NCBI GenBank assembly: GCA_048882385.1
Contig: JBHLRQ010000069.1
Coordinates: 1-17,682, forward strand
DNA from: Candidatus Thorarchaeota archaeon
GTDB lineage: Archaea; Asgardarchaeota; Thorarchaeia; Thorarchaeales; Thorarchaeaceae
Reading direction: 5' to 3'
DNA: 17,682 nucleotides
A program made the translations under genes and the position numbers. The notes under the pieces are model-generated. The model was not told where the DNA came from, did not search any database, and saw only the letters and a program-made list of their open reading frames with translations. Positions within the stretch are counted from its first letter, which is position 1. The number at the start of each line of letters is the position of its first letter. Of this stretch, positions 1-17,682 are shown in pieces.

Positions 1-919
1 CAGAACCTGTGAATAGTGACATTGCTGAGTGAACAGCGTAGTAGGTAGCTGCGATTGTTGGTTCATGCTGATAACTGAAACCTCCCTCGAGTAGAGACCC
101 TGCTGATGCTTGATGACTTGCTAGAACAAGTGGCGTCTCTGATTCTCGTAAAGCAGATGAGAAAGCAATGATGTTCTCTAGCAGATCCTTTCCTGTAGAC
201 GTAAGCTTCGTAGAATCTTCTGGTGAATAGAGGAAGATGTCAAGTGGCATTGATTCAAACCGTAGTGCTGCAATATTTGATGGTGCGGCTCCTGTAAGAT
301 CAACAATCCTGGAAACCTCTGTCTGAACTGTATCTTTAGGAAGAACAACTCCTGTTTCTGTTGTTATTGAAGAACCTAATGTCAACATATTTGGTGTGAC
401 CATGTAGGCTGCCCCTGCAAACTCTGCAGTTTCGAGTAGGACCGTTGTTGCAGAGACAGCCAGAGACGGTGGACCTACGTCTCTTAGTCTATGAAGAATC
501 CATGCTGATCGACCTGTAAGTATAAGACTGACATCTTTACGTATGAGAAGGTCAATAATCTCCTGAGGGACTGCCACACCATCAGAAGACCCGAGACTTG
601 CATCTACAAGCACCAATGTGACCAAATCGAGTAGTTCTGGTGAGATTAGTACTTGACTCACATTTACTACTTGGCTGAAGATTCCTGATGAGTTGAGTAG
701 GTGCGACCAACTATTCCCTCGTGGAGTGATATCTCCGCCTACCATTTCGAGAACCATATATGAATTGGTCTGAACCGATATTCCAGGATCTGCAGATGGA
801 GCGGCTGACTCTGTTTGTTGTATGATTTGATTTTCATGGATTCCTTCTGGAATTGCTGGGTCTAATGGTGTGGCTAAGAGAATGCATGCAACTAACAAAA
901 CAATGAGAACTCGCCTCAT
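1..919 (-). CDS. Secreted or surface protein with prenyltransferase/squalene-oxidase-type repeat (5' part only; runs off the left edge)
   Basis: Not in the ORF track because it is truncated. ATG at 919-917 with GGAGGT (931-926) upstream. The N-terminus MRRVLIVLLVACILLATP looks like a signal peptide. The translated start and end segments are in the same frame, and near the edge it reads EGGFSYQHEPTIAATYYAV, resembling the GGF...TYYA prenyltransferase repeat. Confidence 0.75.
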   Translation of the reverse strand, partial: MRRVLIVLLVACILLATPLDPAIPEGIHENQIIQQTESAAPSADPGISVQTNSYMVLEMVGGDITPRGNSWSHLLNSSGIFSQVVNVSQVLISPELLDLVTLVLVDASLGSSDGVAVPQEIIDLLIRKDVSLILTGRSAWILHRLRDVGPPSLAVSATTVLLETAEFAGAAYMVTPNMLTLGSSITTETGVVLPKDTVQTEVSRIVDLTGAAPSNIAALRFESMPLDIFLYSPEDSTKLTSTGKDLLENIIAFSSALRESETPLVLASHQASAGSLLEGGFSYQHEPTIAATYYAVHSAMSLFTGS

Positions 920-1054: not shown

Positions 1055-1082
1055 TTGTTTTCATACTCTTTCTTTTCTGTCA

Positions 1083-1679: not shown

Positions 1680-1869
1680 TACTTAGACTCCTTTTCTCTT
1701 CCATTTTTACGTCCTATGACAATGTAGAAGAGAAGTTTAGAAAGTGTAATGCTGAAGTCTGATAACCACTGATATCATATTATATACAGAATTAGACAAT
1801 GATAGTAATATTATTGAATTAAAGGAGATATATTATGCTCAATATTTATAAAATATGAGCTCATAAAAC

Positions 1870-2457: not shown

Positions 2458-2470
2458 GTAATTTTGTACT

Positions 2471-2490
2471 GATTTATACTAATAAGGTCG
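2471..2490. promoter_or_regulatory. Putative archaeal TATA element(s) in a divergent promoter region
   Basis: The minus strand reads CCTTATTAGTATAAAT, with TTATTA at 2485-2480 about 23 nt before ATG 2457. The plus strand has TTTATA at 2473-2478 upstream of the large regulator gene. Confidence 0.45.
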
Positions 2491-2541
2491 TAAACTATCT
2501 ATACGAAGTAATAAGTGCAGCATCGTAATCGTGTGATGATT

Positions 2542-4644
2542 ATGGGTCTTAGACCACGTGTGACAACAGATTGGCTTCGCAAAGGTCGTAGGGTAGAAGA
2601 CATTAAGATTCTTCGAAACCTAATCGATGATTCATCAGACTGGAAGATCAGTACAGCCATCTTGTCTGAAACTCTCTTTGAGAAGAGCTTTGGTTTGAAA
2701 CCCCTTCCTGACTCATCACATAACCACACTATAATCAACGAGGTTCTCGGTCAGGCAGCAGTAACTGAATTTGTCAGAATCAACAAAAATGACCTCATTC
2801 CTGAAGGAGATAGTCTACTTGAGCAGGTCCAGTCATTGCTACCATCAAATCTAAGTCCGGAAGAGGAGAGGACTTTGTCTTATGTCTTCAGCCGAATTAT
2901 AGTTGAGGACACCCCCATAGATACCAAATGGCCACTTGTTCCAGCAGGATTAGACTCTCTATCAGCGGCTCTTCTTACTATTAATATGATTTCGCAGTTA
3001 ATTGGTACAAAACCCAGATGGCTTCTCCCTATATGGTTACAAAAGGTCAATGAAATCAAAATTGAATTCATCAGGATGATTTTAGATTTTATGAAATTTA
3101 AAGACAGTACCGAGAAACGTGAGATAATTACTAGGCTCAAGAGTTATCGTGACCTTGTGCAGATTCCAAGCGATGAATCTGAAGAACTTGATGAAATTGA
3201 TGATGAAATTAATCTTGATGGGATAGTGAAAGAGTGTAAATACTACATCGAAACACTACTTCGAAAGGACTCAATGATTTCCCGACAGGACCCACTTACA
3301 GGTAAATTAGAAAAGTGGAGAACTACGTTCAAAGGTTTGGAGAGTGAGCTAGAAGCAGCGAAGAGGGCATTGTCGCGATTAAGGAGGATGAAGAGCACCG
3401 ATCTTGAAGAAACAGATCTTCTAGCTGCGGAAAATAGAGTCACTGTTCTTCAAGAAAAAATTAAGGAAAATAATAGAATCCTGGAAGACGAGGTCTATAC
3501 TCTCCGAACTCAAGATCAATTGTTGACAAAGTGGACAAATCTAACTTTATACCCAGATGGAATATTGGCTTCTAAAAATGAAGACCTCATTAAGAACATC
3601 CGAATTGATCTGAATGCTCTGGCGTATTGGCCACTTGTCAAGATGTGTTCCTTTCTATCGAATTCAGAGAAACCTGGAAGACCTGCAGCTTCTGACATTG
3701 TCCAAGAATTGGGACTTAAACAAAGAATGGCACATTATAGTCTCCTGCGTCTTGGATTACTAATGAATGAAAGATACATACTAACTCCTCAAAAACTTGG
3801 TTTAAAATACAGGTTTATTTTCACTAAGAAACAGAAACCTAGTGTTCTTAGTGATGGACTCATTGAAAGACTGAAAATGAATACTTCAGATGAGTACGGT
3901 GGGTGTACTGTGCACCTTGAACCTACGACTTCTCAAGGTCCATCTCAAATTCAGCTACCCGCAGATGCAATCCAGCTTTCCGGTTATTCTGAAATCGTTT
4001 CAATGAGGATTGATCTATTTGATTCCAAGGAACAAAAGTGGAATCTTGAATATGCATACATGAATGATCCACTCAAGGAATCAAAAACACGGAGAAGAAC
4101 ATCGAAATGGTTGTTCAGAACCACTGATAGTCCATCATCAAAGCCAGCTCATCTTACTCAGACTGAACTTGATATTCTTGGACCATTATCTGTTTTCAGA
4201 GGTCTGCGTCGTTCAAGAAATTGGTTTTTTGAAAATCTCGGTATCAATCCATTGACCGCTAGAAGATATGTTAAGAACCTTGTACGAAGGAAGATCTTCA
4301 GACTTATGTATATGCCATCTTTGGCATATTGTGGACTGCCAATTGGAATAATGGTGGGAGGACAGTTCATCACTGGAAAATCACGACGGATGTTCATCAA
4401 TTGGATGACATCTAAGCTACCATACGCACGAATACTAATAGATGATTCAAAGCAATTAGTGGCTTATCTTCGACTTCCAATAGATGCAATCACACCAATA
4501 AGAGGAATCTTGGATTCGAGGTCATTTGCTTCAGAAACCAACCAGTGGTTTGTATCTGGTATTTTGTCCTATCGAACATACATGCTATCAGCTTTTCACA
4601 AACTGACAAAGAATGGTGAAGGATGGATTGATCCTTGGATCTAA
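2542..4644 (+). CDS. Large protein with a central coiled coil and two C-terminal Lrp/AsnC-like HTH modules (putative regulator)
   Basis: HTH 1: AASDIVQELGLKQRMAHYSLLRL...PQKLGL. HTH 2: LTQTELDILGPL...NLGINPLTARRYVKNLVRRKIF...AYCGL. A heptad-rich region (FKGLESELEAAKRALSRL...LQEKIKENNRILED) lies in the middle. The start is more likely ATG 2542 (or 2536) than GTG 2515. Confidence 0.7.
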   Translation: MGLRPRVTTDWLRKGRRVEDIKILRNLIDDSSDWKISTAILSETLFEKSFGLKPLPDSSHNHTIINEVLGQAAVTEFVRINKNDLIPEGDSLLEQVQSLLPSNLSPEEERTLSYVFSRIIVEDTPIDTKWPLVPAGLDSLSAALLTINMISQLIGTKPRWLLPIWLQKVNEIKIEFIRMILDFMKFKDSTEKREIITRLKSYRDLVQIPSDESEELDEIDDEINLDGIVKECKYYIETLLRKDSMISRQDPLTGKLEKWRTTFKGLESELEAAKRALSRLRRMKSTDLEETDLLAAENRVTVLQEKIKENNRILEDEVYTLRTQDQLLTKWTNLTLYPDGILASKNEDLIKNIRIDLNALAYWPLVKMCSFLSNSEKPGRPAASDIVQELGLKQRMAHYSLLRLGLLMNERYILTPQKLGLKYRFIFTKKQKPSVLSDGLIERLKMNTSDEYGGCTVHLEPTTSQGPSQIQLPADAIQLSGYSEIVSMRIDLFDSKEQKWNLEYAYMNDPLKESKTRRRTSKWLFRTTDSPSSKPAHLTQTELDILGPLSVFRGLRRSRNWFFENLGINPLTARRYVKNLVRRKIFRLMYMPSLAYCGLPIGIMVGGQFITGKSRRMFINWMTSKLPYARILIDDSKQLVAYLRLPIDAITPIRGILDSRSFASETNQWFVSGILSYRTYMLSAFHKLTKNGEGWIDPWI

Positions 4645-4649
4645 TAGAT

Positions 4650-5645
4650 TCAAAACCACTGTTCAAGAGTTGACTGACGATTGCCAAAGTTCTTCCAGAG
4701 TTTAATCACCTTCTGTACAGTCCTCTCTGCTGATTCATTTGACATAATTGGAATCAATTGGCGTTTGAGCTTCGAGGAAATAGGTGGATTGAGTTTTAAT
4801 TTATAGTTAGAAACTGACAGGTAGTTTGGTTCGTCAAAGACCTCACGAGCTGTTACAAATTCTTCTCGCTTTGAATGTGAGTATCCTTTTGCTTTGAGAA
4901 CATTTTCTAATCCTCCATGTCTTCGAAGAAGTAGTGCACCTTTTCGCGGCCCAATTCCCTTTGCACCTACTTTATGAAAATCACATCCACATAGTACAGC
5001 CAGATCTCTTAGCTGTTCGAGATCAAGGTCCAGGTGTGATTCTAGATCACACAACTTAGCTCGCATTATACGATTGTTCGAGGTCTGTAGTTGTTTGGTC
5101 ACATGTGGACTTCCAAAGAGAAGAGCATCCACATCATTGGAAACAACTGTGTCTACTAGTCTTTCTTTGCACATTGCAGCAGCTAACATTTCAGCTTCGG
5201 ATGGAGCAGTAATGGTCGGGACTCCTACAACACTTCCCAACGTTCTCAAGTGTTCGGCTGCAAAATACATCCTCAACGCACGACTCCTCCGCAATGCTGA
5301 TGATATTTCCTCATTATACGGATCACCCTCATTCAGAAATTTCCTGTGTAGACTATGAGCAAGTTGGATAATTTCTGGGTTGGGTTGTCGTTTCTGCGAT
5401 TCTGGTGGTCCATCAAAAATTAGTACTGGAAGAATGTTAGAACTAAGAGTAGCTTTGATCAAACTGAAAAAAGTCCCAACATGAGTAAGAGGTATCCTTC
5501 CATCTCGTGTGTCTGTAGTCTTGATGACAGTCAGACGACGTGTTAGATAATTCGGTACATCTATTGCTATCACTCCTGGACTTATTTCATCAATACTCCC
5601 CCAGCGCCAAGGTACAATATTATCACCCCACCCTTTAACTCCCAT
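4650..5645 (-). CDS. fen: FEN1/XPG-family flap endonuclease (divergent) with C-terminal PIP box
   Basis: Motifs IAID, PVLIFDG, APSEAE, VSNDVDALLFG and H2TH LCGCDF..GAKGIGPRKG, so the acidic catalytic set appears intact. Ends in QSTLEQWF, a canonical QxxLxxWF PIP box. May be a paralog rather than the housekeeping fen. Confidence 0.9.
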   Translation of the reverse strand: MGVKGWGDNIVPWRWGSIDEISPGVIAIDVPNYLTRRLTVIKTTDTRDGRIPLTHVGTFFSLIKATLSSNILPVLIFDGPPESQKRQPNPEIIQLAHSLHRKFLNEGDPYNEEISSALRRSRALRMYFAAEHLRTLGSVVGVPTITAPSEAEMLAAAMCKERLVDTVVSNDVDALLFGSPHVTKQLQTSNNRIMRAKLCDLESHLDLDLEQLRDLAVLCGCDFHKVGAKGIGPRKGALLLRRHGGLENVLKAKGYSHSKREEFVTAREVFDEPNYLSVSNYKLKLNPPISSKLKRQLIPIMSNESAERTVQKVIKLWKNFGNRQSTLEQWF

Positions 5646-5655
5646 ATCACGTACC

Positions 5656-6363
5656 TCACTTCATCGATCGAATCCCTTTCGAATCTGCTCTAACGATTAT
5701 CCCAGGAGGATTTTTTGAATGGGTACTGCGTTCAATGAGAATTCTGATGAGATTCTCACCTGTTTTCAATCGATCTGCCCTAACAACACTATCAACCGCA
5801 TGAGATAGGACATTCCCTCCAATTGGTGAATGATCACCTGAAACCCAGTTCTTTGCGGAATAATCAGTAATCAATGCATGAGTATCAAACTGGTTAACAG
5901 ATTTTCTTATGGTTTCAAGTGTTTGAAAGAGCTCTCGTTGACGTCCTTTAGTACCAGGTGCCCCTGTTAGGTTCAATGCCCCTGTTAAATTATCTAATAT
6001 GATAATAGAAATCTCAGACAATTCTGAGAAACTACCTATCATATCAACGATATCAGCCAAACCCATTACATTTCCTACTAGAATGCGTTCCAGAATATCT
6101 GAGGTTGAAGCAATCGCTCTAACTAAAGAGGGACTGTAATTAGAACCTGAATCAAGAAACACACACTTAGCACTATCATTCGATTTAGCTGCAGAAACAG
6201 CAAGACTGTGGGCTATAATACTCAAGGGTGCTCTCTCTGATCCGTGAAGAAGACTAATTGTTCTTGGCAACACTATCCTGCTAAAGGTTTGTTGTAAAAC
6301 ACGTGGAGTGAAACGAATTCTGGGTTCAATTGGAACATTGAGTGATTCAAGTGGTAATCTCAA
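5656..6363 (-). CDS. RecA/RadB-fold recombinase paralog with degenerate Walker A
   Basis: ISLLHGSERAPLS occupies the P-loop position. Also CVFLDSG, Walker B IIILDN and PIGGNVLSHAVD (RadA/RadB-like GG..L.H). The start is likely TTG 6363, 12 nt after GGAGG, rather than TTG 6375, which directly abuts the RBS. Confidence 0.8.
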   Translation of the reverse strand: MRLPLESLNVPIEPRIRFTPRVLQQTFSRIVLPRTISLLHGSERAPLSIIAHSLAVSAAKSNDSAKCVFLDSGSNYSPSLVRAIASTSDILERILVGNVMGLADIVDMIGSFSELSEISIIILDNLTGALNLTGAPGTKGRQRELFQTLETIRKSVNQFDTHALITDYSAKNWVSGDHSPIGGNVLSHAVDSVVRADRLKTGENLIRILIERSTHSKNPPGIIVRADSKGIRSMK

Positions 6364-7309
6364 CTGACGATGCAACCTCCTGCAAAGATGTGAAATTTCG
6401 ATTCAATAGTATCTCTCTCTCGTGTCCTTGTTTCAATTTCTCGACATTGAGTCCAGTTGACACGTTGTCTGGAACAAGAATCATCACTTCTGGTTTAGAT
6501 GGAATAACCATCATCCTCAAAGGCCATGTTGATAGCAAATCAGACACTGACTTTTCGTCCCTCGCCAATCTGTAATCATGCATTGGAAGTCCATTCTGTT
6601 CATCAATGATAGGAACCATTTGAACCGCTTCTGCAAGAAGAGGAGGAGCTCTCTGAGTGTTAATTTCAACCAAATTGAGAAGAGAACAGATGCGAGTGAC
6701 TAAATCAATATCCTCAGTTGTGATGACTAATGCATCACACTCTTCAAAATGGGTTAGGGATATCGGCAAAAGAGGTCGGTCTCTCATCAACTTCACAATC
6801 TTCTCATGCTGAGAATGATCTACCAGAATTACTGTGTGTCTTGAATTAACCGCAAAGGATGTTCCATCTCCAACAGGTACGATTCTCTTTGTGAGTCCAT
6901 CAATACGCGTTCCAAGTTTTGATCCAGGAATCATCTCTTTAATGTAAATGGAGATTGATGAGGGGTCTCCAAGAAGAGAGCATCCTATACTGGTGAAAAC
7001 CGCGGCAAGAATTGATACGACCAATCCATATGGTAGTGCAATAACAAATGCAATGACGACAACATAACCAGTTGCTGCATAAGCGGCGATATTCAATAGT
7101 ATCTTTACTGGAGTATCTTTAGGTTGACGTTGTAATAGGCGAAGAAGAACGATTGGAAGCAGAATTGCTCCAAGTAGTGGATAGGGATTGCCATTTCGAA
7201 ACGAGAGAACAACTGAAACAACCGAGGCAAGTAGTTGAGCTCCCGCAGCAAGGGCTATTGCTCCAGCTATGATTAACCCAATCAATTTGATTAGCCCTTT
7301 TCCAAACAC
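6347..7309 (-). CDS. Membrane protein (about 4 N-terminal TM helices plus a soluble domain), function unknown
   Basis: Hydrophobic stretches in the first ~115 aa. GTG start with GGAGGT at 7322-7317. Confidence 0.8.
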   Translation of the reverse strand: MFGKGLIKLIGLIIAGAIALAAGAQLLASVVSVVLSFRNGNPYPLLGAILLPIVLLRLLQRQPKDTPVKILLNIAAYAATGYVVVIAFVIALPYGLVVSILAAVFTSIGCSLLGDPSSISIYIKEMIPGSKLGTRIDGLTKRIVPVGDGTSFAVNSRHTVILVDHSQHEKIVKLMRDRPLLPISLTHFEECDALVITTEDIDLVTRICSLLNLVEINTQRAPPLLAEAVQMVPIIDEQNGLPMHDYRLARDEKSVSDLLSTWPLRMMVIPSKPEVMILVPDNVSTGLNVEKLKQGHEREILLNRNFTSLQEVASSVEITT

Positions 7310-7312
7310 CTC

Positions 7313-7966
7313 TCAGACCTCCGCTTTATTCCTAATGACAAAATCAGAAAACAAGACATCATCGTTCCTCAAGATTCCAATTTGATGTTTATTCTCTAAA
7401 CCCCGCATGATTTGCGATGAACTATCCATGGTTGTCTTGATAAGGAGAAAGTCATGGTCCACCCATTTTGCGATAGTCTTCTGATGTACAGCTAGATTCT
7501 TCGAGTCTTCCATGGCACGGGTTTCACTCGTTATGATAACACTCAAGCCTTTTTGATCGACTAATCCCGCCAAGGTCGGTAATGCTTCCTCAATCATTTC
7601 TCTTCCCCATAGAATGGGATCTGCACGAGCCAAATCTAGAATTCTTGTTATTGAATCAATAACAACAAGTGAAACCTCAGGATCTAGTCTCTCAGCAAGA
7701 TTGAGAATAACCTCTCTAATTTCATGCCTATCATTGAGCATCGTAACTATGATGTTTTCCATAACTCCCTCTTCTGATTCAACCAGTCGTTTTAACTGCG
7801 GAGCAAAACTTTGTTTTGCATCAGTGTTTATCCACTCTACTTTCGAATATCTTGACTCATTAGAGGCAATAATACTCGCAAGTAGAGTCTTACCAGAACC
7901 AGCTTTTCCCCAGATGTGTATCAAACCTTCTAGGTTAAGTTGTTTTATTAAACGAGGTTTAGACAC
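7313..7966 (-). CDS. RadB-like RecA-superfamily ATPase
   Basis: Walker A GKAGSGKT, VEWINTD, Walker B LVVIDSI, VIITSE. No RadA N-terminal domain. The start is likely GTG 7966 (GTGTCTAA overlap with the upstream stop, with a purine-rich RBS) rather than TTG 8011. Confidence 0.85.
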   Translation of the reverse strand: MSKPRLIKQLNLEGLIHIWGKAGSGKTLLASIIASNESRYSKVEWINTDAKQSFAPQLKRLVESEEGVMENIIVTMLNDRHEIREVILNLAERLDPEVSLVVIDSITRILDLARADPILWGREMIEEALPTLAGLVDQKGLSVIITSETRAMEDSKNLAVHQKTIAKWVDHDFLLIKTTMDSSSQIMRGLENKHQIGILRNDDVLFSDFVIRNKAEV

Positions 7967-9593
7967 TTGCAGAACCACTCTCCTCACCTGCCCCACTGGT
8001 TGGCTCTCCAAACTCGAGATCGTCCAGTAATGAGAGTTGTCTAATGTCTTTCACCTTTATCCTACGTTTTTTCTCTCGGGCACTCACAACATCTGCGGCT
8101 GTGAGCTTCAACTCTGGATCCATATCATCAGAGGTTTCAGATGGTTCTTCCACTGAAGCATCACGAATCATATCGTGTAGCTCTTCTTCTTCTGCTGCAA
8201 TATTCTCCCCTGATCTGATATTCGTTGTTTCAGACTCATCTCCAAGATTTTGAGGTTCATCAGGAAATAAAGGTTCTTCTTCCGCTAGCTCCTTATCAAT
8301 CTCTTCGACTGCCTGTTTCATTGCTTGTTTGTTTAGCTGATCGTCAATTGCTTCTTTGATATCAGGTCTTAACGCTCCTACATGATATAGCGCATTGTTT
8401 AGCTCTGTGAGGTGTTTAACGGCTTCGTTGAAATCAATTCGTTTTGTCACATGTCCTGTGAGCCCAACATAAGAGAGCGCAAGTGGCTCTTCCTCTTCAA
8501 CACCTCCTAGATCCTCGAACAAACCTAGAAACTTTCTAAGTCCCTCATCAGCTGATCTTAGTGATATGGAATTTGAGGTGCTCGCAGGTGGAGATAACCT
8601 GACACATTCATCTAATACCGCACATGCTGCATTGACCGCTGCATCGACATCTCCCTTTTCCAGAGACCTTCCAGCAGCAGCTATCAATGGCGAAACCACA
8701 AAATTGAGGTCTCCAATCAGAATGAGCTTATCTTCATTATCGTTTATTGATTGTGAGATTCTTTCAGCATCTCCTATGCGGTCTAGTACATCCTGTTCGT
8801 TGGACATTGTAGTGACGAACCCATTGATTGAATTTCTTGAGGAGTGTATCAACCAACCTCCTAAAACTCCTGAAAGGGTACTTGTTATCAAAGGAAGGAT
8901 GAGAGATCCTGAACCTATAATTAGTACAGATAGAACTGCAGCAACTCCAATGATAAAACTAGCAATAGCTAGTACACCAAACCAGCCACGTGTCATTCCA
9001 CTTTCGAGTAGTGACCATTTTGCCGCAGTAATGCTCTCCTTGAGACTAGGTAATTTGGAACGCGCATCACTTCTTCTGATGAGTACAAACTCCTCAGGAG
9101 TAACAACACGACCAGTATCAGTCAACCAAGTGAGATCCATTGATGGTTTCGTGTCCTCCGTGATTACATAGACAGTACGTGTTTCATGGATTAATGACGT
9201 AGATTTTCCGGATATACCTCTCAGTAGAGGAAGACGCACACGACCCCAAGGTGTAAACACGGATTGATCTTGCATGAACTCCTCAAGCCCGACATCTCCA
9301 AGTACACGAGATAAAGTCCTGTTTATGCTTTCCAGAACTGCTGCTCTCATTGCTAGACCACTCTTACCAAATTCTGCTTCTCGAAGGTCTAGCACATATA
9401 CGATATCTACGTGAACACCTCGGGTTCCTGGAATTGATTCCATCCTTACTCCTAGTGTCAAGCCATTCGGATACTTTGTTGTAAAATGGCCAGTGACTTT
9501 CAATGCATCTGATATTTCGTGCGTTTTAGTTTCCGATTTTGTTTCTTCTAGGTCTTCCTCTGGTGATTTTTTCTCTCCCTTTACTAAGGTCAT
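7959..9593 (-). CDS. Membrane protein with two central TM helices, a helical domain and an acidic disordered tail
   Basis: TM segments WFGVLAIASFIIGVAAVLSVLIIG and LILPLITSTLSGVLGGWLI. E/D-rich C-terminus. ATGA overlap with the upstream helicase gene. Confidence 0.85.
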   Translation of the reverse strand: MTLVKGEKKSPEEDLEETKSETKTHEISDALKVTGHFTTKYPNGLTLGVRMESIPGTRGVHVDIVYVLDLREAEFGKSGLAMRAAVLESINRTLSRVLGDVGLEEFMQDQSVFTPWGRVRLPLLRGISGKSTSLIHETRTVYVITEDTKPSMDLTWLTDTGRVVTPEEFVLIRRSDARSKLPSLKESITAAKWSLLESGMTRGWFGVLAIASFIIGVAAVLSVLIIGSGSLILPLITSTLSGVLGGWLIHSSRNSINGFVTTMSNEQDVLDRIGDAERISQSINDNEDKLILIGDLNFVVSPLIAAAGRSLEKGDVDAAVNAACAVLDECVRLSPPASTSNSISLRSADEGLRKFLGLFEDLGGVEEEEPLALSYVGLTGHVTKRIDFNEAVKHLTELNNALYHVGALRPDIKEAIDDQLNKQAMKQAVEEIDKELAEEEPLFPDEPQNLGDESETTNIRSGENIAAEEEELHDMIRDASVEEPSETSDDMDPELKLTAADVVSAREKKRRIKVKDIRQLSLLDDLEFGEPTSGAGEESGSASV

Positions 9594-11785
9594 TTATCAT
9601 GCTCTCCTCTATTGTTAAGTCGAACCTCTATTTCTTCCAAAAAGCCTCTTGACATTCCAAGAACCTTCGAGAGACCTCCCAATTCAGCAATTACTGCAAT
9701 TGAATGAAGGAGCCATCTTGAAGATTCCAATAGCCCAAACATATCGCCCATGCTTATTCCGTTTTGGTCCGCAATCTGTTTCAATGGAATATTAGTCGTT
9801 ACCAGTGCAGCCAGCATGTTGTCAAACGAATCATCAAGACCACTTCCACTTTCAATTGATACCACATGTCGCAACAACCAGAGAAGTTGTCTGTTGTCCT
9901 CTATTGTTGGAAGTAGTGCCAGTATCTCTCGAACCGTTGGGATGCTAAGGTAAAGGCGATTGGTAGTTCTTCCAAGTCTTGTTGGTTTGAGCTTCCCATG
10001 CACGTTTCCCTCAACTAATCCAAGTCGTATTAATAGAGCCAATGGTGAGGTCTCTGATAATGCAAGCGGGATGACGTAATCTGCAAGTGTTCCTAATTCA
10101 CGAGATGCAACCATACCTAATGCCACAAGATGGTGACATAGTATGCCTCCTTCGGTCATTGGTTTTCCACATGAACACATAGCTCCCTCCGTGTTTCCGG
10201 ATTGTGAGAGTCTTGATGAAAACCTACAAGTGAACTGCCCTCCACCATAACCTGTGACAATTCCACCAATTACAGTATCATGTTGCTCACGAATCTTCGT
10301 TCCACCTAAAACTCCCTTGCGTGCGGACTGTATAGTTTCAGGAAGAGAATGCTTCTCGATTGCAGACTCAGCTGTTATTTCTCCAAGCTGAAGAACTCTC
10401 ATTGGAGATTGTCTATCTCTGATCGCACAGTGAACAAGATACGACTCTCCTAGGATACCATCCTCAATTTCCTCAACGGAGGCTGTACACATCATATCAA
10501 GGATCACGAGAAGTTGCTCAGCTAGAGCGCTTGGTTCTCCTAGTACACTGGAAACTGAATCGTATTTAGGTAGAAGTGATTCTTTACCAGTTTCATCGTC
10601 TGTTATAATATCGAAATAACGATTTTTGATCTTAACAGCCTCGCCAGTACTTCCAACGATAATGATTCCAAAGCCCACTTTGTCATGTCCTGGTCTTCCA
10701 GCACGACCAAGCATCTGATGTACATTGTTGCCAGAAAGAAGTCTTCGGTATTCCTGAGGTGATTTGACACTTGAGAGTACGACAGTTCTTGCAGGTAGAT
10801 TCATTCCAGCTGCCAATGTCGATGTTGCACAGATTAAACGGATGAGTCCCCTGTTGAATAATTTCTCAATCAATCTTCGAGTTTGATAATCTAATCCTGC
10901 ATGGTGATATGCGGTTCCATCATGAAGCAACGCTCTCATATCAGATGGGACATTCAGATTCGTGTTCTCAACAGATTTGAGTTCCAAATCCAATTGATCT
11001 TTCTCTCCAGATGAGAACTGACGACCTACATCCTCAGCTAACCGTAGAGCTTGAGCCTCAGCCTCTCTTCTTGTTCTACTGAACACGATTGCTTGAGCAT
11101 CACCTTGCACAGTTGTCATAACGAGATTCTTGATACTCTGATTTTTGTTGGTTGCAGAAATGACTCGACAGACCAATGGAACTGGTCTCTCATCTGACTC
11201 AACGAGTTCACACCCCATCCATTCTGCAAGCTCATCGGGAGAACCTACTGTGGCAGATAACGCAATTATTTGAACCTCAGGAATTTTGCGTTTCAGCCTG
11301 ATTAAGAGGCTCTCTAGTCGAGCTCCTCGTCCTGGCTCTGATATAGTCTGAATCTCATCGATCACTATTGTGCCCAGATTAGTGATCCAACTTGCATCAC
11401 GTCTGAATAGTGAGTCTGCTCTCTCATATGTTGTCACAAGGATATCATTCTCTGAGAGGTTTTCTCCTGCATTTTCGAAATCCCCAGTACTTAGTCCAAT
11501 TGTGACCCCAAACACCTCATACCTTTCTTTGAGGACTTGAGTTACTTGAACAGCTAGTGCTCGCAAAGGAACAAGGAACATGCCTTTTTCGCCCGCAGTC
11601 ACAGCCCTAAGGAGTCCCATCTCTCCCACAAGCGTTTTTCCACTTCCCGTTGGACTACATACCATGATGCTTTTTCCATCTAAGAGTCCCTTTTCGATTG
11701 CAGTGTTTTGGATGCCTCGTGGCTTGATTCCAATCTTGCCAACAATTTCCTCAACTTTTGATGAGACATCCACTGCAGTCATCAT
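9590..11785 (-). CDS. Ski2-like/Hel308-family SF2 helicase with an inserted SWIM zinc finger
   Basis: SPTGSGKT, DEIQ, SAT, HHAGL, ATSTLAAGMNLPA, QMLGRAGRP. SWIM motif CSC-x10-CHH. End of winged helix at PTRLGR...LYLS. Ratchet-like helix GDMFGLLESSRWLL. Confidence 0.9.
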   Translation of the reverse strand: MMTAVDVSSKVEEIVGKIGIKPRGIQNTAIEKGLLDGKSIMVCSPTGSGKTLVGEMGLLRAVTAGEKGMFLVPLRALAVQVTQVLKERYEVFGVTIGLSTGDFENAGENLSENDILVTTYERADSLFRRDASWITNLGTIVIDEIQTISEPGRGARLESLLIRLKRKIPEVQIIALSATVGSPDELAEWMGCELVESDERPVPLVCRVISATNKNQSIKNLVMTTVQGDAQAIVFSRTRREAEAQALRLAEDVGRQFSSGEKDQLDLELKSVENTNLNVPSDMRALLHDGTAYHHAGLDYQTRRLIEKLFNRGLIRLICATSTLAAGMNLPARTVVLSSVKSPQEYRRLLSGNNVHQMLGRAGRPGHDKVGFGIIIVGSTGEAVKIKNRYFDIITDDETGKESLLPKYDSVSSVLGEPSALAEQLLVILDMMCTASVEEIEDGILGESYLVHCAIRDRQSPMRVLQLGEITAESAIEKHSLPETIQSARKGVLGGTKIREQHDTVIGGIVTGYGGGQFTCRFSSRLSQSGNTEGAMCSCGKPMTEGGILCHHLVALGMVASRELGTLADYVIPLALSETSPLALLIRLGLVEGNVHGKLKPTRLGRTTNRLYLSIPTVREILALLPTIEDNRQLLWLLRHVVSIESGSGLDDSFDNMLAALVTTNIPLKQIADQNGISMGDMFGLLESSRWLLHSIAVIAELGGLSKVLGMSRGFLEEIEVRLNNRGEHDK

Positions 11786-14127
11786 GTACTAGCTATCTCC
11801 TCATTTGCTTGTTTCAGAGCCATACTTCCCTTCATTGTGATTCTGAAATTCGAATAGGAAACCCCACTGTGACTCTCGTGCCCTCTCAGAATCATACTGG
11901 CATGCTCGAGTCTAGCCAACACTCCCTCTACATCAGGATTCGATTCACTCCCATTGGCTATAACAAACCTGCGCACAGCCTCCTCAGTCAGAGGCTCATA
12001 CCTTTCAAGCAGTTTTAGAACTCTTACAGCAAGATCTTTACTTTCGCCTGCGACCCTGTCTATTAGAGTAAGTTCGTGCATGGACTGCTTCTGCGATTCT
12101 ATGGGTTTCAACTGATCAATACGCTGTGACAGTTCTTCATGCCCGCTTTCAATTTTGAATTCTGGAATTGGATCTAGCTTAATTGGTTGACAAGTTTCGG
12201 TGCCATCGTGAACAAGAAGAGCTGTTGAATCATCCATTATTCTCAAGAAAGATGATTCTCTAGGAGAAATTCTTGCCTTTGTGTGCATTCCTGTTGTGAT
12301 GACATTTAATCCTAGCAAGTCAGCCGCATAATGAATGTCAGCTGATTCTCTAAGTCTTAGTGAGATACACGCTGATAATACACCGATTGTTCCAGGACTC
12401 ATATCTGCAGGATGCTCCAATGTTAGAATCACAGGTCCTCGTATCTTCAAAGTCTTGAGTAACCTTTCAGAGAGTGCGTCATGTTTCATGTATCGTCTAT
12501 TTCGCACTCTCATATTCTCAGCTTCATCAAGAATAATCACTAGATTTGGATCTGAAACCAAACCTCCCAATTTCAAACAAAGAAGATTCCACGCGAAGCT
12601 GTCAAGACCAATTGAACCAAGTGACACAGAAACTATAGTTAGTGAAGGGTCAGTCAGTCTTCGAATCGGAACCGTCTGAGTACCATAGAATGCTCGAGCT
12701 CCAGGTCCAAGATGAAGCGAGCGGATTGCTTCCATGCCTGTTGCAGTTTTCTTTGAAATCTTTGGAGTCTGAGAATCCCTGCTATCGGGTGTCAAACTCG
12801 GATCTTCAAAATCTGGTGTTAAACGAATATCCGCGAGGGTCGCATTTCCCAGAGAAACTGCTCTTGACACAGCGACCTCCAGCTCTGCAGCACCTCTCAT
12901 ATCAAATCCTGATACTACTTCCAATCCGGAGATGAGCAAGGGGACGTACTCATTTCTGGGTATTCCTTCTGGATCAACTGGGTTCAGAACAAGGTCTCTA
13001 CCAAGTTCAAGATATACTGACGATTCCGATAGACCCGTTAGAGCTGCGCGAGTTTTGTGTTTTGTAATCAATAGAACACGTTTCTCAGCTTCAAGGAGTT
13101 TGTCTATCAGTAATGCCAGCACTCTTAATCTGGATTCCTCTGTTCCGCCACACACTAGAGTTCCAGTCAAAAGGTCCTGTTGTGACATACCCGCAGGTGG
13201 ACCAATCTGGAGGGTGTCTGGATTAAGCGTCACTCCCAATCTATAGTCATCTGGTCGAGCACGAATTGGAGCAATGAATTGACCTGGAATATTACTTCCA
13301 ACTTCAGCAGCTAATTCACTACGTAGCTGAACTAACCATTCTGACAACTCCGAACCTGCAGCGAAGAACCAACCAATCTGTCGATGTACTTGATGTTGCT
13401 TCATCCTTGAAAGTAGATTTCTCGGAGTGATCTCTTTCCATTCTTTCTCAGGAATTGCAGCTCTCACTGCAGAATCAAACGCACCAGTGTCAGTGATTTC
13501 TCGCATATGACCTACGATGGTCGTGTGTGATAGCCACAGCCCACTTCGTCTTCGGACATAAGCATCAAGGTCACCCTTTGATAATGCATTCAAATAACCC
13601 TCTAGAAGATCGGATATTTTCTCCTCATTCATAGCCCGGGTTATTTTCTCTGGTTTCATTGTTACTGTGAGACAAAAACCGAATGATGTATCTAGAGCTC
13701 TAACTAATGAACCAACATTACCCAATAAATTCGGACTTGCAAGTCCGAGGTCTAGACCTACTATGTAGCGAGTTCCATCCGTTCCTCTAAGCTCCATACT
13801 CTCAGAGTCAACCAGACAGGATAGGTCTCCTTCTTGGACCTCTTTCCATTCTTGAAGTAGACTGTTCATCTCTTTTGTTCCCCTAAGATTAGGTGAAGCG
13901 AGATGAATCAACAGAAGAACAATGGATGTGATTGTCAAAGAAACTGGAACATAGAAGCCAACTACGATTGCAAGTATTGATGCAAAAAGCAATCTAAATA
14001 GTGGGAATCCTACTCCTCTTTCCTCCCATCGGATGTCTATCCCTGTTGTTATGGTGCCTTTTGGTTCTGATAATTCTTCAAGAGGATCCACTTCAGGCTT
14101 CGTGCCCAAAATCAGACGTTTACCCAT
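11782..14127 (-). CDS. Membrane-anchored HerA/VirB4(FtsK)-superfamily ATPase-like protein with degenerate Walker A and C-terminal winged helix
   Basis: N-terminal TM hairpin. TLVCGGTEESR in place of GxTGxGKT. Also LVLNPVDP, Walker B LVIILDEAEN and VILTLEHPADM...ISLRL (HerA-type Q-x-P region). The wHTH-like end reads DVEGVLARLEHASMI...FRITMKG. Confidence 0.75.
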   Translation of the reverse strand: MGKRLILGTKPEVDPLEELSEPKGTITTGIDIRWEERGVGFPLFRLLFASILAIVVGFYVPVSLTITSIVLLLIHLASPNLRGTKEMNSLLQEWKEVQEGDLSCLVDSESMELRGTDGTRYIVGLDLGLASPNLLGNVGSLVRALDTSFGFCLTVTMKPEKITRAMNEEKISDLLEGYLNALSKGDLDAYVRRRSGLWLSHTTIVGHMREITDTGAFDSAVRAAIPEKEWKEITPRNLLSRMKQHQVHRQIGWFFAAGSELSEWLVQLRSELAAEVGSNIPGQFIAPIRARPDDYRLGVTLNPDTLQIGPPAGMSQQDLLTGTLVCGGTEESRLRVLALLIDKLLEAEKRVLLITKHKTRAALTGLSESSVYLELGRDLVLNPVDPEGIPRNEYVPLLISGLEVVSGFDMRGAAELEVAVSRAVSLGNATLADIRLTPDFEDPSLTPDSRDSQTPKISKKTATGMEAIRSLHLGPGARAFYGTQTVPIRRLTDPSLTIVSVSLGSIGLDSFAWNLLCLKLGGLVSDPNLVIILDEAENMRVRNRRYMKHDALSERLLKTLKIRGPVILTLEHPADMSPGTIGVLSACISLRLRESADIHYAADLLGLNVITTGMHTKARISPRESSFLRIMDDSTALLVHDGTETCQPIKLDPIPEFKIESGHEELSQRIDQLKPIESQKQSMHELTLIDRVAGESKDLAVRVLKLLERYEPLTEEAVRRFVIANGSESNPDVEGVLARLEHASMILRGHESHSGVSYSNFRITMKGSMALKQANEEIAST

Positions 14128-14425
14128 GCTCTACTTCCTCCTTCCTCATAATGAAATTCAGAGAATACCTCTGGAGCATGTTCAAGATCTTCCTAAGACG
14201 ATCTACGTATACAGGGTCTTCACCAGCTATCACAAGCGATCTATTGCCAGTCATCAGTAGCTCAGGCATGTTACCTAATGTTGGATTTCCATGTGCAACA
14301 AGTAACGGTGATCGTATGAGAATAGTCCATTTGTATCCGTGACCAAGTTCAAGAGACCTCATGATGTCTTCCGACTTGACACCGTTTGGTATTTCGAGGC
14401 TGTAACGCATCTCAGGTGGATGCAT
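14120..14425 (-). CDS. Small hypothetical protein (101 aa)
   Basis: ATG with GGAGGT at 14441-14436. Overlaps both neighbours (14 nt and 8 nt), as expected for a coupled operon gene. Confidence 0.8.
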   Translation of the reverse strand: MHPPEMRYSLEIPNGVKSEDIMRSLELGHGYKWTILIRSPLLVAHGNPTLGNMPELLMTGNRSLVIAGEDPVYVDRLRKILNMLQRYSLNFIMRKEEVEHG

Positions 14426-15011
14426 TGGTTACCAAACCTCCTGTATTTGCAATCAGAATGTCCTCTTTCTCAGCTGGCTCAACGGGCAGATGTGGATAGG
14501 CGGCTCTCATAGAACTCTCTAAGATCATGATGTCAGCAAGCATTAGGTTCGATAGTTTCTCCAATTTTATTCTAGTATTTGGCAGACGAAACGCACTTCT
14601 TCGGATCAGCATTCCAACCTTTGTCGATTCATTTCTGATTGGTCGATTTATGAAGAAGACAATAGTGCCACCTTCTTCATTCTCGAATCTTATATGCATG
14701 GCTTGCAAAACTTTCCTCGCTGAATGAGAAAGATCGATGCCAATTGGAACACTTCCAAGGAGTCTTGCAGCACATAGCTCTACCCTCCAAGGTCTGATAA
14801 TAGCAACAAATCTTCGTTGCTCATCCCATAGTACATTGGGAATATAGCTTGACTTGTATTCAAGAAACAACACTAAGACAAAGACCAGAACTCCGCCGCC
14901 TATCAGAATAATGCTTGTGAGATCATCAGGCGATAACCAGATTTTCAATAGTAGTGTAGTAGCGAATAGAGAAAGTGCAAGCAATTTGACTGGTATGTCT
15001 ATGAATTTCAA
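14412..15011 (-). CDS. Membrane protein (two N-terminal TM helices plus a soluble domain)
   Basis: TTG start in a TTGA overlap with the helicase stop, GGAGGG RBS at 15026-15021. Two hydrophobic helices in the first ~50 aa. Confidence 0.8.
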   Translation of the reverse strand: MKFIDIPVKLLALSLFATTLLLKIWLSPDDLTSIILIGGGVLVFVLVLFLEYKSSYIPNVLWDEQRRFVAIIRPWRVELCAARLLGSVPIGIDLSHSARKVLQAMHIRFENEEGGTIVFFINRPIRNESTKVGMLIRRSAFRLPNTRIKLEKLSNLMLADIMILESSMRAAYPHLPVEPAEKEDILIANTGGLVTNAST

Positions 15012-16966
15012 TGAATCAAGCCCTCCTGCATTTTTACAAACTGATCAATTGCATGTTTCAGTTCTTCGACATCCCGATAGGGCCATACATCAGAAACAAT
15101 GTCATCCCCAAAGATTTTCAGATGTTTGATGAATCGATTATCCAGAAGAACAACGACACCTGTGTCTGTAGGTGATCTTCTAAGACGTCCAATCAGTTGT
15201 GCGACCTGCCGGATAGAAGGAATAACTGAACCATAATAATATCCTAACCCCTCTCCAAATCGTGAATCATACCATCGCTGGAGAGCAACTTGGTAACTAG
15301 TTGGAGGACTAAATGGAATCCCAACGCCAACTATCAGGTCAATCATACTAGAACCCGCATCTACGAGATCTATTCCCTCGGAGAATTTTCCACCGTATAC
15401 ACAGAAGACTGCCTGAGGTCTCTCAGATAACGCATCAGTCAGAGTTTCAATACGCTCACTACGGGTTTCAATCAAAATCTCTCGGAATCCTGTGTCGATT
15501 GAATATGACATGACCTCATGGAGCATCTTGTAGCTTGGGAACGCAATGAGTGCGCTCTTGTTAGCAGGCATTGTTGTCAAAGTTGCTGTTATTCTGTCTA
15601 CTAAATTTCTCCAAAGTTCTGACCCTCTTGATTGGTACCGTGTATTGAGAGTCTTATCAACGAGAACAAGTCTGGTTCCTCTCGGATATGGACTCATGAG
15701 GTCCTCAGCCTTTGCACTAGATACTCCGAGAAGCCTTGCATAATACTCGAGAGGTCTTAACGTACCAGACATGAGAACTGCTGCCCGTGCACCACGTAGT
15801 ATGGGCGCTGTTAGCCCAGAAGAGTTCAATGGTTGAATTGATAATTGAGATTTTATAGATGGAATATCCTCTTTCCAAGATTTAGAATTTTGAATTGTGA
15901 CATGCCAACCCTCACTCTTGGCAGCTCTAAGAGACGTGTACAAAAACTCGATAAGTCTGTCCAGTGGAGTTTCTATGAGATTGGCATTCTCTGGATCATT
16001 CATGCCAGGACGACCAGACGCATGCAACAGGTCTAAATCATCCTCTTTAATGAAACGTGGAGAGATGTCCCACTTGTCTAATACTCTCTCACTACGATTG
16101 TGCATTCGGTCAAGATTGACCATCATGGTTTCCCAAAGAAAATCGATGACTTCCTTAATCCATTTCAAACCTGTTTCTCTTGTTACCAACTGATGGTTTT
16201 CCTTTAACCATCGCAAATCTTCGTTGCTCAAATGAGCGGTTTCTGCATCAAGAACATGTGCTGACAGATTGTGTGCCTCATCAACGAGGAGATCCACATC
16301 ATGGAGCAGCAGTCCGAGCGATGATAGCAGTGCTGCTCGAATCCGAGACCTGAATAGGTAACTGTAGGGGCCTATGATTACACGACTACTCCTGGCGCAC
16401 CATCTCATCGTTTCGTATGGGCATACTCCCTCGTCACTTGCCTGTTCTTCTATGCGTTCCCGAGTTACTACACCAGTGTTAAGAAGGTCATCAATCGATT
16501 CTCTCATAGTGTCGCGAATTACAGTCCTTCCATCAGGCTGCTTTTTGTAGAACCCCCAATAGTGGTTGCATGATCCTGTCTTGATCATTTTAGCACAAGC
16601 CCGCATGAATCCGGTGCTACTCAAAGACTCCATCTGATGCCTGATGGGACATACATGCACTCGTGAAACCATTGTTGTCGCTCTTAGATTGGGAATTACA
16701 GAACGAAGAACCTCGAGCTCACTCTCGAAAACCCTTGACTGAGAGTGTGTCCTTGTAAGGGCAAACAATCTTGAGGTTTCATCGTGGCTGCGGACAGCAA
16801 AATATCCTGAGAGGACAGCAATAGTCTTGCCTACTCCACAATCTGCGGAAAGTAATCCGACAGTCTTTGAAGAATACACCTCAGCTGCTAGACCGACCGC
16901 TTTGTCCTGATGTGGTCTTGGAGAGTATGGAAACATTGCCATTGGGTCGATCGTCGCAGTACTCAA
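15008..16966 (-). CDS. XPD/Rad3 (DinG-like) Fe-S cluster DNA helicase
   Basis: Q-motif FPYSPRPHQ, Walker A ADCGVGKT, TRTHSQ, four Cys (HVCP, RACA, GSCN, VCPYE), VDEAHNL, LMSGTL, FSEGIDL, GVGIPF, QLIGRLRR, VVLLDNRF. Confidence 0.93.
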   Translation of the reverse strand: MSTATIDPMAMFPYSPRPHQDKAVGLAAEVYSSKTVGLLSADCGVGKTIAVLSGYFAVRSHDETSRLFALTRTHSQSRVFESELEVLRSVIPNLRATTMVSRVHVCPIRHQMESLSSTGFMRACAKMIKTGSCNHYWGFYKKQPDGRTVIRDTMRESIDDLLNTGVVTRERIEEQASDEGVCPYETMRWCARSSRVIIGPYSYLFRSRIRAALLSSLGLLLHDVDLLVDEAHNLSAHVLDAETAHLSNEDLRWLKENHQLVTRETGLKWIKEVIDFLWETMMVNLDRMHNRSERVLDKWDISPRFIKEDDLDLLHASGRPGMNDPENANLIETPLDRLIEFLYTSLRAAKSEGWHVTIQNSKSWKEDIPSIKSQLSIQPLNSSGLTAPILRGARAAVLMSGTLRPLEYYARLLGVSSAKAEDLMSPYPRGTRLVLVDKTLNTRYQSRGSELWRNLVDRITATLTTMPANKSALIAFPSYKMLHEVMSYSIDTGFREILIETRSERIETLTDALSERPQAVFCVYGGKFSEGIDLVDAGSSMIDLIVGVGIPFSPPTSYQVALQRWYDSRFGEGLGYYYGSVIPSIRQVAQLIGRLRRSPTDTGVVVLLDNRFIKHLKIFGDDIVSDVWPYRDVEELKHAIDQFVKMQEGLIH

Positions 16967-17589
16967 TCATAATCCTCCTCCACTCTCAGTCTAGCCTCAG
17001 CTGTGTATATTCTGAATTTCAGCGAGAAGTAGCCATTGAGAATCCTTTGGAATCTCATCTGGTGCTCCCGTGAGCTGTATCCTCTCTCCTCTCGAGCCAT
17101 ACGCTCAACAATCTCTGGACTGAATCCCTTCTGTCTCGCCGCTTTCCAAAACCATCGTTCAACCTCTTTCATTGTCGACAGGAGATGTGTCAATGACTCT
17201 TCTATGATGGTCATTAATTCCTGAACAGCAGTCTTGGGGTCTTCTGGTAACTTGGAAACATTGACACTTGTTGGTAAATATACAGCCACTCCCGTTGTGC
17301 TGTTCAGATTTACCTCCCTGGGAACTCCTTTTGTTCCCCTGAGGGTTTCCAGCAATGAAAGTAATCGAGGAAGTTGTGGCAGTACAGGCTTTTCTAGGTC
17401 TGGATTTCTCCAATCAACCCTAGTTACAACATAGAGTTCAGGATCTGGACCTCTTGCACGTTCTAGAACTGTGATTCGATGTGCAGTTTCTCTCAGTAGC
17501 AAATTGACTAGATTGATCATCGAGCTTCGTGGTACATTTGGCGGAGTTGTCACAACCCAGGTGTGTTCTTGGTCATCTGTACTAGACAT
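16963..17589 (-). CDS. Hypothetical protein (208 aa)
   Basis: ATG with GGAGG at 17603-17599. Its TGA stop overlaps the TTG start of the helicase gene. No motif recognised. Confidence 0.8.
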   Translation of the reverse strand: MSSTDDQEHTWVVTTPPNVPRSSMINLVNLLLRETAHRITVLERARGPDPELYVVTRVDWRNPDLEKPVLPQLPRLLSLLETLRGTKGVPREVNLNSTTGVAVYLPTSVNVSKLPEDPKTAVQELMTIIEESLTHLLSTMKEVERWFWKAARQKGFSPEIVERMAREERGYSSREHQMRFQRILNGYFSLKFRIYTAEARLRVEEDYD

Positions 17590-17682
17590 CTGACAAAGCC
17601 TCCTGTGTCAAGGATATTGATATTCCATCGTTCAGGATCATACCTTCAGATTCAAGAGTGTCCAAGAACTTCATAGCACGAC
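17582..17682 (-). CDS. 3' end of an upstream gene with a winged-helix-like C-terminus (partial)
   Basis: The frame reads RAMKFLDTLESEGMILNDGISISLTQEALSDV* and stops at TAG 17584-17582, overlapping the next ATG by 8 nt (ATGTCTAG). Confidence 0.65.
   Translation of the reverse strand, partial: RAMKFLDTLESEGMILNDGISISLTQEALSDV

Follow-up and report, generated by a model that had tools for sequence, protein, structure and literature searches.

A Hel308-like helicase paralogue of Asgard archaea with a SWIM-type zinc module predicted within its winged helix

What could a putative zinc-binding module be doing inside the winged helix of a Hel308-like helicase that is encoded in one operon with Rad51 paralogues? 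The question is raised by a locus of Candidatus Thorarchaeota archaeon (assembly GCA_048882385.1, contig JBHLRQ010000069.1), analysed here from position 1 to 17,682 of the forward strand; this whole stretch of 17,682 nucleotides is referred to below as the window. Hel308/HELQ is a conserved controller of recombination; how it works together with RAD51 paralogues in animals lacks a mechanistic explanation, and the SWIM proteins of the Shu complex likewise work through Rad51 paralogues. We conclude, with high confidence, that the window helicase carries a SWIM-type zinc module inside its winged helix and belongs to a distinct Asgard paralogue group of Hel308. The parts of its gene are as follows.

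9590..11785, minus strand: SWIM-Hel308 paralogue gene, a single open reading frame of 731 amino acids plus stop.
10601..11785, minus strand: RecA1 and RecA2 motor (residues 1-395), with Walker A SPTGSGKT, motif II DEIQ, SAT and motif VI QMLGRAGRPG.
10412..10534, minus strand: N-terminal part of the winged helix (residues 418-458), three helices (H418-432, H437-447, H449-456), continuous with Hjm to residue 450.
10049..10411, minus strand: SWIM-type insert (residues 459-579), consisting of a loop, two helices, a four-stranded sheet, a putative zinc knuckle and two helices.
10130..10177, minus strand: putative zinc ligands C537, C539, C550 and H552 (CSC-x10-CHH), from sequence position and conservation.
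9950..10048, minus strand: C-terminal part of the winged helix (residues 580-612), a helix and a beta-hairpin wing (H581-587, E591-593, E599-601, H603-611), aligning with Hjm 458-509.
9593..9949, minus strand: ratchet domain 4 (residues 613-731); profile positions 654-726 correspond to Hjm 570-643, and the model aligns from 5 to 729 on 2p6r chain residues 1..641.

The putative ligands lie in CSCGKPMTEGGILCHH, residues 537-552 of the helicase, whose codons occupy 10177..10130, exactly where a preliminary description of this DNA had placed a CSC-x10-CHH motif that it read as a SWIM zinc finger. The motif agrees with the SWIM signature CxCxnCxH, in which n is usually 6-16 as quoted in PMC5727457; the spacer reaches 21 in long forms of the family. 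When the helicase sequence was shuffled 20,000 times, a pattern of the form C.C.{6,25}C.H came up in 9 of the shuffled versions. Conservation of the Cys and His residues, on which the preliminary description had let its proposal depend, proved to be complete. No substitution of C537, C539, C550 or H552 occurs in any of 40 Thorarchaeota homologues (51-81% identity) or of 12 diverse family members (31-54% identity); the latter come from a search with residues 396-731 against 1.84 billion representatives, in which only 24 proteins reached E <= 0.001. An alignment of the insert of the window protein with those of 13 loci from other Asgard genomes (124 columns, identity in the insert down to 20%) contains just five positions invariant in all 14 sequences, namely the four ligands and L553, and the ligands are kept in 19/19 sequences when the ATPase-dead paralogues described below are included. 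The motif was further found in all 121 stored relatives of at least 600 residues, with a CxC-CxH spacer of 9-14, and in 22 of 23 homologous loci of other Asgard genomes, the 23rd of which ends at a contig edge before the motif region. The window protein also matches the CxHxxA form (C550-H-H552-L-V-A555), the Shu family motif being CxC...CxHxxA (PMC6316741); an Ala at this position is present in just 52 of the 121 relatives. It is quite probable that the insert binds one zinc ion via C537, C539, C550 and H552.

The insertion site was mapped with a profile of the 12 diverse members against all PDB sequences. On Hjm (2zj2), the family profile aligns in three pieces, 6-464 with residues 3-450, 581-632 with 458-509 and 654-726 with 570-643, leaving about 116 profile positions (465-580) where Hjm has 7 residues (451-457). 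The insertion point falls between the third winged-helix helix and the helix preceding the beta-hairpin wing. The two strings that the preliminary description took as the beginning and end of a split winged helix fall on either side of this gap, the first aligning to Hjm residues no further than 450 and the second to those after 457, in full accordance with that placement. The full-length AlphaFold2 model, built from a 40-sequence alignment, has a predicted local distance difference test score (pLDDT) of 89.1 and a predicted template modelling score (pTM) of 0.86. In this model three helices (418-456) are followed by a loop, two helices (472-489), four strands (E495-501, E505-511, E517-526 and E532-537), the CxC and two further helices (551-563 and 566-575). 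The strands account for the beta-rich stretch noticed earlier ahead of the motif; E532-537 ends at C537, and H551-563 begins at C550/H552.

Modelled alone from the 14-sequence alignment, the insert reaches pLDDT 83.5 and pTM 0.77. When this model was compared with 48,161 solved chains with no Foldseek pre-filter, a single chain had Z >= 5, that of ZSWIM8 (9rwz_M, Z 7.3; next 4.1), and a second comparison, made on the top 1000 of Foldseek, again gave ZSWIM8 at Z 7.3 versus 4.2 for the next. The match covers 88-89 residues with a root-mean-square deviation of 3.3-3.6 and 17-19% identity, from 14 to 111 of the model on 114..214 of the chain. Since this range contains residues 172-208, described as the zinc-binding SWIM domain of ZSWIM8 (PMC13083262), it supports a SWIM fold of the insert. 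The similarity to this best and sole outlying match is moderate and limited to the domain, and ZSWIM8 differs from the window protein in being a eukaryotic cullin-RING substrate receptor without a helicase.

Several results weigh against this assignment. Best Z values of 7-8 are common for models without a clear match; we nevertheless give weight to ZSWIM8 for standing alone, 3 units ahead of every other chain, and for belonging to the small set of SWIM proteins with a solved structure. A Foldseek search of the insert against PDB returned nothing at E <= 0.001 and ranked ZSWIM8 only 22nd (E 0.61), the insert profile had no match to PDB sequences at E <= 10, and the ESM Atlas gave no usable match. 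The Pfam SWIM model (PF04434), a scan with which had been proposed as a check in the preliminary description, went the other way: it gave a 63-residue piece 8.6 bits (E 1.8), the cut-off being 19.6, and did not match the whole helicase or a 193-residue region; it matches 3 of 14 family inserts at E <= 5, the best at E 6.7e-4. As PF04434 stays under its cut-off, the module is called SWIM-type by signature and fold and not a Pfam-level member. Shu2, from the Shu complex structure, is not among the structural matches listed for the insert, and no sequence or fold match of the insert to Shu2 was obtained with the profile against PDB sequences or among the 48,161 chains. This absence is compatible with a likeness between them, since the Shu2 motif holds a 59-residue insertion (PMC5727457). 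The signature, the invariant ligands, the order of strands and helices and the lone ZSWIM8 outlier sustain the original SWIM identification.

The protein that carries the insert is in all likelihood a superfamily 2 (SF2) DNA helicase/translocase of the Hel308/HELQ type, and a paralogue rather than the canonical Hel308 of the cell. Pfam identifies DEAD (E 2.8e-30), Helicase_C (E 4.2e-10) and, weakly, Helicase_dom4_arc at residues 666-708. The best solved sequence relatives are Archaeoglobus Hel308 2p6r (E 1.8e-71) and Hjm 2zj2, matched over residues 26-391 only. The NCBIfam Hel308 models cover only about the first 415-440 residues and score far under their cut-offs; NF040935 (Hel308/Hjm) gives 285 bits, over model positions 8-414 only, against a cut-off of 1200 bits. 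Because none of 41 Asgard genomes reached this cut-off, the phylogenetic tree presented below is a better test of Hel308 membership than the NF040935 score. A canonical Hel308 encoded on another contig of the same genome reaches 613.5 bits (model positions 1-676), as compared with 284.1 bits for the window helicase, which is for this reason considered a paralogue.

Superposition of the model on archaeal Hel308 structures, also envisaged in the preliminary description, matched domains 1-4 with VIA Z 33-34 over 560-590 residues and Foldseek E of 1e-33 to 1e-35 (Hjm E 1.7e-35). On Hjm 2zj5 the Z is 33.7, with 580 residues aligned, from 4 to 730 of the model on chain residues 5..655. By VIA and profile alignment RecA1, RecA2, the winged helix and the ratchet are all present. 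This RecA1-RecA2-winged helix-ratchet architecture and the SF2 motifs are common to Hel308/Hjm (2p6r, 2zj2/2zj5/2zj8, 2va8, 9b15), to the HELQ/POLQ helicase domains and to the window helicase. The motor residues K50, T51, D143, E144, S177-T179 and Q357-P365 are invariant among the 40 Thorarchaeota homologues and the 12 diverse members, and the helicase is, judged by its intact motifs, ATPase-competent. Motif II reads DEIQ and not DExH (residues 143-146, positions 11350-11361, minus strand). Domain 5 (helix-hairpin-helix) is absent by structure and profile alignment, the protein stopping at about Hjm residue 643-655, or about 641 in 2p6r; domain 5 is described as a brake and annealing element in a 2026 review of HELQ/Hel308 (PMC13623763). 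The window helicase thus differs from Hel308/Hjm by its insert of about 116 positions, the lack of domain 5, its DEIQ motif II, its position in a separate clade and its co-existence with a canonical Hel308. A possible parallel to the insert is offered by the eukaryotic Ski2-like helicases Mtr4/Ski2, in which the arch domain likewise interrupts the winged helix (PMC10946056); the arch consists of a stalk and a KOW/beta-barrel rather than a zinc finger, and Mtr4/Ski2 act on RNA.

The Hel308 model separates the proteins of the 41 genomes into two classes, canonical full-length ones at about 500-680 bits and SWIM-type ones at about 250-310 bits, matched in the motor only. A maximum-likelihood tree (36 rows and 690 columns, insert columns removed by a 60% fill rule) splits 21 canonical from 14 SWIM-bearing Asgard proteins by one branch, with a Shimodaira-Hasegawa-like approximate likelihood ratio test (SH-aLRT) support of 99, and a single SWIM clade is compatible with the approximately unbiased test (p 0.83). 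The tree omits two of four distant outgroups, among whose long branches there was attraction; one of the four was itself a SWIM-bearing ATPase-dead paralogue. None of the 21 canonical Asgard Hel308 proteins has the SWIM motif. The distinct helicase subfamily proposed in the preliminary description is supported.

The SWIM-Hel308 helicase is Asgard-wide and forms a clade apart from canonical Hel308. The closest relatives bear Thorarchaeota as source name, and the named members of the family come from Thorarchaeota, Jordarchaeum, Asgardarchaeia, Hermodarchaeia, Heimdallarchaeota, Helarchaeota and 'Promethearchaeota' records; among named relatives, this branch was found in Asgard archaea only. Residues 396-731 are matched in 73 of 201 sampled genomes of the phylum and in 36 of 43 of the window's own family, and the SWIM motif was confirmed at the opened loci in eleven family-level groups. 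Most of the 121 relatives retain the ATPase motifs (G.GK[ST] in 111, DE[IVL][HQ] in 120), motif II being DEIQ in 94, DEVQ in 15, DEIH in 9 and DEVH in 2, with Gln forms in 109/121. Family members mostly lack domain 5; the insert and a C-terminal helix-hairpin-helix extension occur together in P0129, P0132, L068 and L072. A literature search, which left out subscription-only papers and supplements, found no paper pairing 'Hel308' and 'SWIM', and such an insert is not mentioned in the passages retrieved from a survey of archaeal Ski2-like helicases (PMC10946056) or from the HELQ/Hel308 review (PMC13623763).

Two features of the sampled proteins may be recorded here. Longer members of the family occur in two groups (L027, L028, L030 and L033 in f9; L072 and L073 in f13), with about 834-872 residues where complete and a CxC-CxH spacer of 19-21; within 6 kb of the four f9 loci no Rad51-family gene is encoded, the neighbours there being HHH_5 proteins, a further DEAD-box helicase, and DUF1922 and TPR proteins. 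The canonical Hel308 of five genomes (G012, G022, G031, G015 and G036) is encoded by frames of 900-1289 residues in which the model match is split at 344, which looks like motor-domain inteins.

The same genome contains a third Hel308-related gene, coding for 738 residues (L005:1456-3669, plus strand, the same gene as L063:4930-7143). Walker A and the DExH/Q box have been lost from its product, which carries CSC-x14-CKH at residues 552-570, a motif that shares its alignment columns with that of the window protein; Pfam finds no family in it. The corresponding family comprises 210 proteins at E <= 0.001, labelled Thorarchaeota and mostly annotated as 'hypothetical'. Among its 111 full-length members, 109 have the SWIM motif and none has the ATPase motifs (Walker A or DExH/Q). 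The neighbours of this ATPase-dead paralogue are housekeeping genes.

The neighbourhood of the window helicase is of another kind. Its gene is the sixth of an operon of 11 genes that runs on the minus strand from 17589 to 4650; in operon order, the other ten are the following.

16963..17589, minus strand: g208, first operon gene in the window, no family assigned, kept in L021-L025.
15008..16966, minus strand: XPD/Rad3-like helicase paralogue of 652 residues (DEAD_2, Helicase_C_2).
14120..15011, minus strand: g199 (14412-15011) and g101, small genes with no family assigned, their order kept in 4/4 loci of the same family.
11782..14127, minus strand: g781, 781 residues, weakly HerA-like, with an N-terminal hydrophobic hairpin and a 4-base overlap with the helicase start.
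7959..9593, minus strand: g544, 544 residues, ATGA overlap with the helicase stop, internal hydrophobic hairpin, acidic tail, isoelectric point (pI) 4.7.
7313..8011, minus strand: RadB1, Rad51/RadB-like paralogue of 232 residues (NCBIfam RadB, E 7.4e-13).
6347..7309, minus strand: g320, predicted membrane protein with 4-5 N-terminal hydrophobic segments, no family found.
5656..6375, minus strand: RadB2, Rad51-like paralogue of 239 residues (Pfam Rad51, E 1.3e-7).
4650..5645, minus strand: FEN1/XPG-like nuclease paralogue of 331 residues, last operon gene (XPG_I, E 1.7e-21; fen_arch 145 bits, cut-off 352).

The two Rad51 paralogues differ in their ATPase sites. RadB1 has intact Walker A and B motifs (P-loop GxAGSGKT; G35, G40, K41 and D119 invariant in 8 sequences), whereas RadB2 lacks the Walker A lysine, with HGxERAPLS in the P-loop region of 5/5 orthologues, and accordingly counts as an ATPase-dead paralogue. 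The g781 profile matches four PDB sequences at E <= 1, all of them HerA/DUF87 (best 8ziq, E 1.4e-3, positions 504-609), and Pfam finds no family at E <= 1 in six g781 orthologues, the likeness to HerA thus coming from these weak profile matches. Where a P-loop would be expected, the g781 consensus lacks GK[ST], and the protein may for that reason be an inactive HerA-like one. For g544, no family was found with Pfam, PADLOC or NCBIfam, its profile has no match in PDB, and the ESM Atlas has no usable match; the g208 profile has one chance-level PDB match (E 0.41).

Canonical FEN1, XPD, RadA and Hel308 are all encoded elsewhere in the genome (contigs C1, C3, C9 and C35) with much higher scores, for example 416.6 bits for FEN1 and 306 bits for XPD, indicating that the recognisable operon genes are divergent second copies. 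The helicase gene has four-base start/stop overlaps on both sides. Gene order is identical in all four loci from other genera of the family, at helicase identities down to 49%, and partly kept in the sister family, where a RadA-like gene (HHH_5 and Rad51, 344-363 residues) lies directly upstream of the operon. In distant Asgard lineages the helicase again adjoins a Rad51 paralogue, often together with a FEN/XPG-like gene or RadA. Altogether, a Rad51-family gene is present in the fetched stretch at 14 of the 23 loci; the 3.7-Mb genome of the window itself has five Rad51-family matches, for which the chance of one falling in a 19-kb stretch is a few in a hundred.

Two observations extend this neighbourhood. 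Contig C89 of the same genome codes for a RadA-like paralogue of 368 residues (L064:3575-4681, plus strand; Rad51 189 bits), and an overlapping open reading frame (4678-5109, plus strand) runs off the contig end. Because the equivalent RadA-like gene sits just upstream of the operon in related genomes, C89 probably abuts the high-coordinate end of the window. In family f19, the gene string continues downstream of the FEN-like gene to a Ras/Arf-like GTPase and a Roadblock/LC7 protein (L026:3008-3583; L032:4030-4602 and 4621-5193).

Four operon products have membrane-like hydrophobic segments, namely g781 (residues 37-74), g544 (residues 200-237), g320 and g199 (two, N-terminal), and the hydrophobic hairpins of g781 and g544 recur in 6/6 orthologues each. 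Since both genes that overlap the helicase gene encode such hairpins, the machine encoded by the operon may sit at the membrane.

What, then, would the SWIM module contribute? In the mechanism that we propose, it would project from domain 3 as a docking surface and would link the motor with its partners in a dedicated recombination/repair machine whose genes lie in the same operon. We give protein docking about an even chance of being the job of the insert. It is suggested by the conservation of only the ligands and one Leu across the family, with no conserved basic patch; by the near-neutral charge of the insert, whose pI ranges from 5.3 to 9.7 in 14 sequences with no consistent basic charge; by the retention of the module in the ATPase-dead paralogue family; and by the four-base overlaps with both neighbours together with the Rad51-family gene at 14/23 loci. 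By analogy, it would also agree with two solved SWIM examples in which the domain makes protein contacts: that of Shu2 contacts the Rad51 paralogue Shu1 (PMC5727457), and ZSWIM8 uses its own to organise an E3 superdomain (PMC13083262).

Identifying the docked partner as a Rad51 paralogue is a more tentative step, which we consider possible though rather unlikely. It would follow the examples of Shu2/SWS1 and of HELQ, which is reported to bind the RAD51 paralogue complex BCDX2 (PMC13623763); the window helicase gene has genes for Rad51 paralogues as neighbours. Shu2/SWS1 (ZSWIM7) has a CxC...CxH zinc site in a domain of sheet and helix and is linked to Rad51 paralogues, some without ATPase motifs (PMC5727457, PMC6316741). 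The window operon resembles this in having one Walker-intact and one Walker-dead Rad51 paralogue; it differs in that Shu2/SWS1 is a small stand-alone protein, whereas the SWIM module here is internal to a 731-residue helicase. Against docking stand the conservation of R499, R521 and R525 of the insert within Thorarchaeota, which fits a DNA contact, and the lack of a Rad51-family gene in the fetched stretch of 9 of the 23 loci, including all four long-spacer forms of f9, several contigs being short. Complex predictions of the insert with RadB1 and RadB2, made with alignments and no controls, scored 0.00 against a mark of 0.32 and speak neither for nor against binding.

An even broader scheme can be drawn, which we regard as speculative and improbable as a whole. 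SWIM-Hel308 would stand at the centre of a recombination machine specific to Asgard archaea and partly anchored in the membrane, in which the SWIM module docks the ATPase-intact and the ATPase-dead Rad51 paralogues. This would be an archaeal counterpart, and possibly a forerunner, of the Shu complex and of HELQ-BCDX2, which in present-day eukaryotes are distinct from each other, and the HerA-like ATPase and the hairpin products would tie the machine to the membrane, for example in the processing of incoming or outgoing DNA. Whichever function applies, the locus has a SWIM module physically fused to a Hel308 motor, and the operon around it adds further genes of RadA/RadB type as well as XPD-like, FEN1-like and HerA-like ones. 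It offers a compact, expressible system for asking what a SWIM module does on a recombination helicase, what takes the place of the domain 5 brake, and whether the eukaryotic partnerships between SWIM proteins and Rad51 paralogues have an archaeal precedent.

The conserved arginines would also fit an insert that is a nucleic-acid-binding module, which extends substrate recognition by the winged helix and selects branched DNA such as forks, D-loops or flaps, a credible but less likely function. Domain 3, on which the insert is grafted, is described as the one that recognises the substrate (PMC13623763), the original predictions for SWIM included binding of DNA as well as protein (PMC5727457), and with the single-strand DNA sensor, domain 5, missing, its loss might be made good by another DNA contact. 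Family-wide, however, none of the insert's basic residues is invariant, and its variable, near-neutral charge, the retained module of the ATPase-dead paralogue and the protein contacts of Shu2 and ZSWIM8 argue against this function as they argue for docking.

The coincidence of domain 5 loss and insert gain in most members, and the restriction of invariance to ligand residues, as expected of a fold-stabilising site, would also be accounted for by a zinc knuckle of purely structural or regulatory role, for example as a stand-in for the lost domain 5 brake, with no external ligand. We hold this to be improbable, given that the four members cited above have both the insert and a helix-hairpin-helix tail, and that a module of about 120 residues would have nothing to regulate in an ATPase-dead paralogue.

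The neighbouring genes, which are Rad51, FEN1 and XPD paralogues, speak against an anti-phage defence system in which the helicase acts as sensor or effector, as in Hachiman (HamB-like) or another helicase-based system; such a system seems very unlikely. The HamB models of PADLOC do match the helicase with E down to 6.4e-41, as does PDC-M23B (E 1.1e-41), and a type IV DinG model picks up the XPD-like neighbour (E 2.3e-79). The HamB matches are nevertheless limited to the generic Ski2-like motor (residues 26-225 and 211-386), and neither HamA (DUF1837), with which HamB is paired in Hachiman, nor another defence partner was found among the 16 open reading frames of the window, beyond weak ATPase matches. 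PHROGs returned generic helicase and ATPase families only. The synteny of the operon and its flanks across genera, with the gene in 36/43 sampled genomes of the family, indicates a core-genome behaviour and not that of an island.

Finally, a chance Cys/His motif in a variable loop that binds no metal, for which the non-significant Pfam SWIM result on the window protein could be cited, is practically dismissed by the 9/20,000 shuffles, by an invariance confined to the four residues and one Leu in inserts with as little as 20% identity, by the retention of the pattern in two paralogous families and by the confident fold of the insert (pLDDT 83.5).

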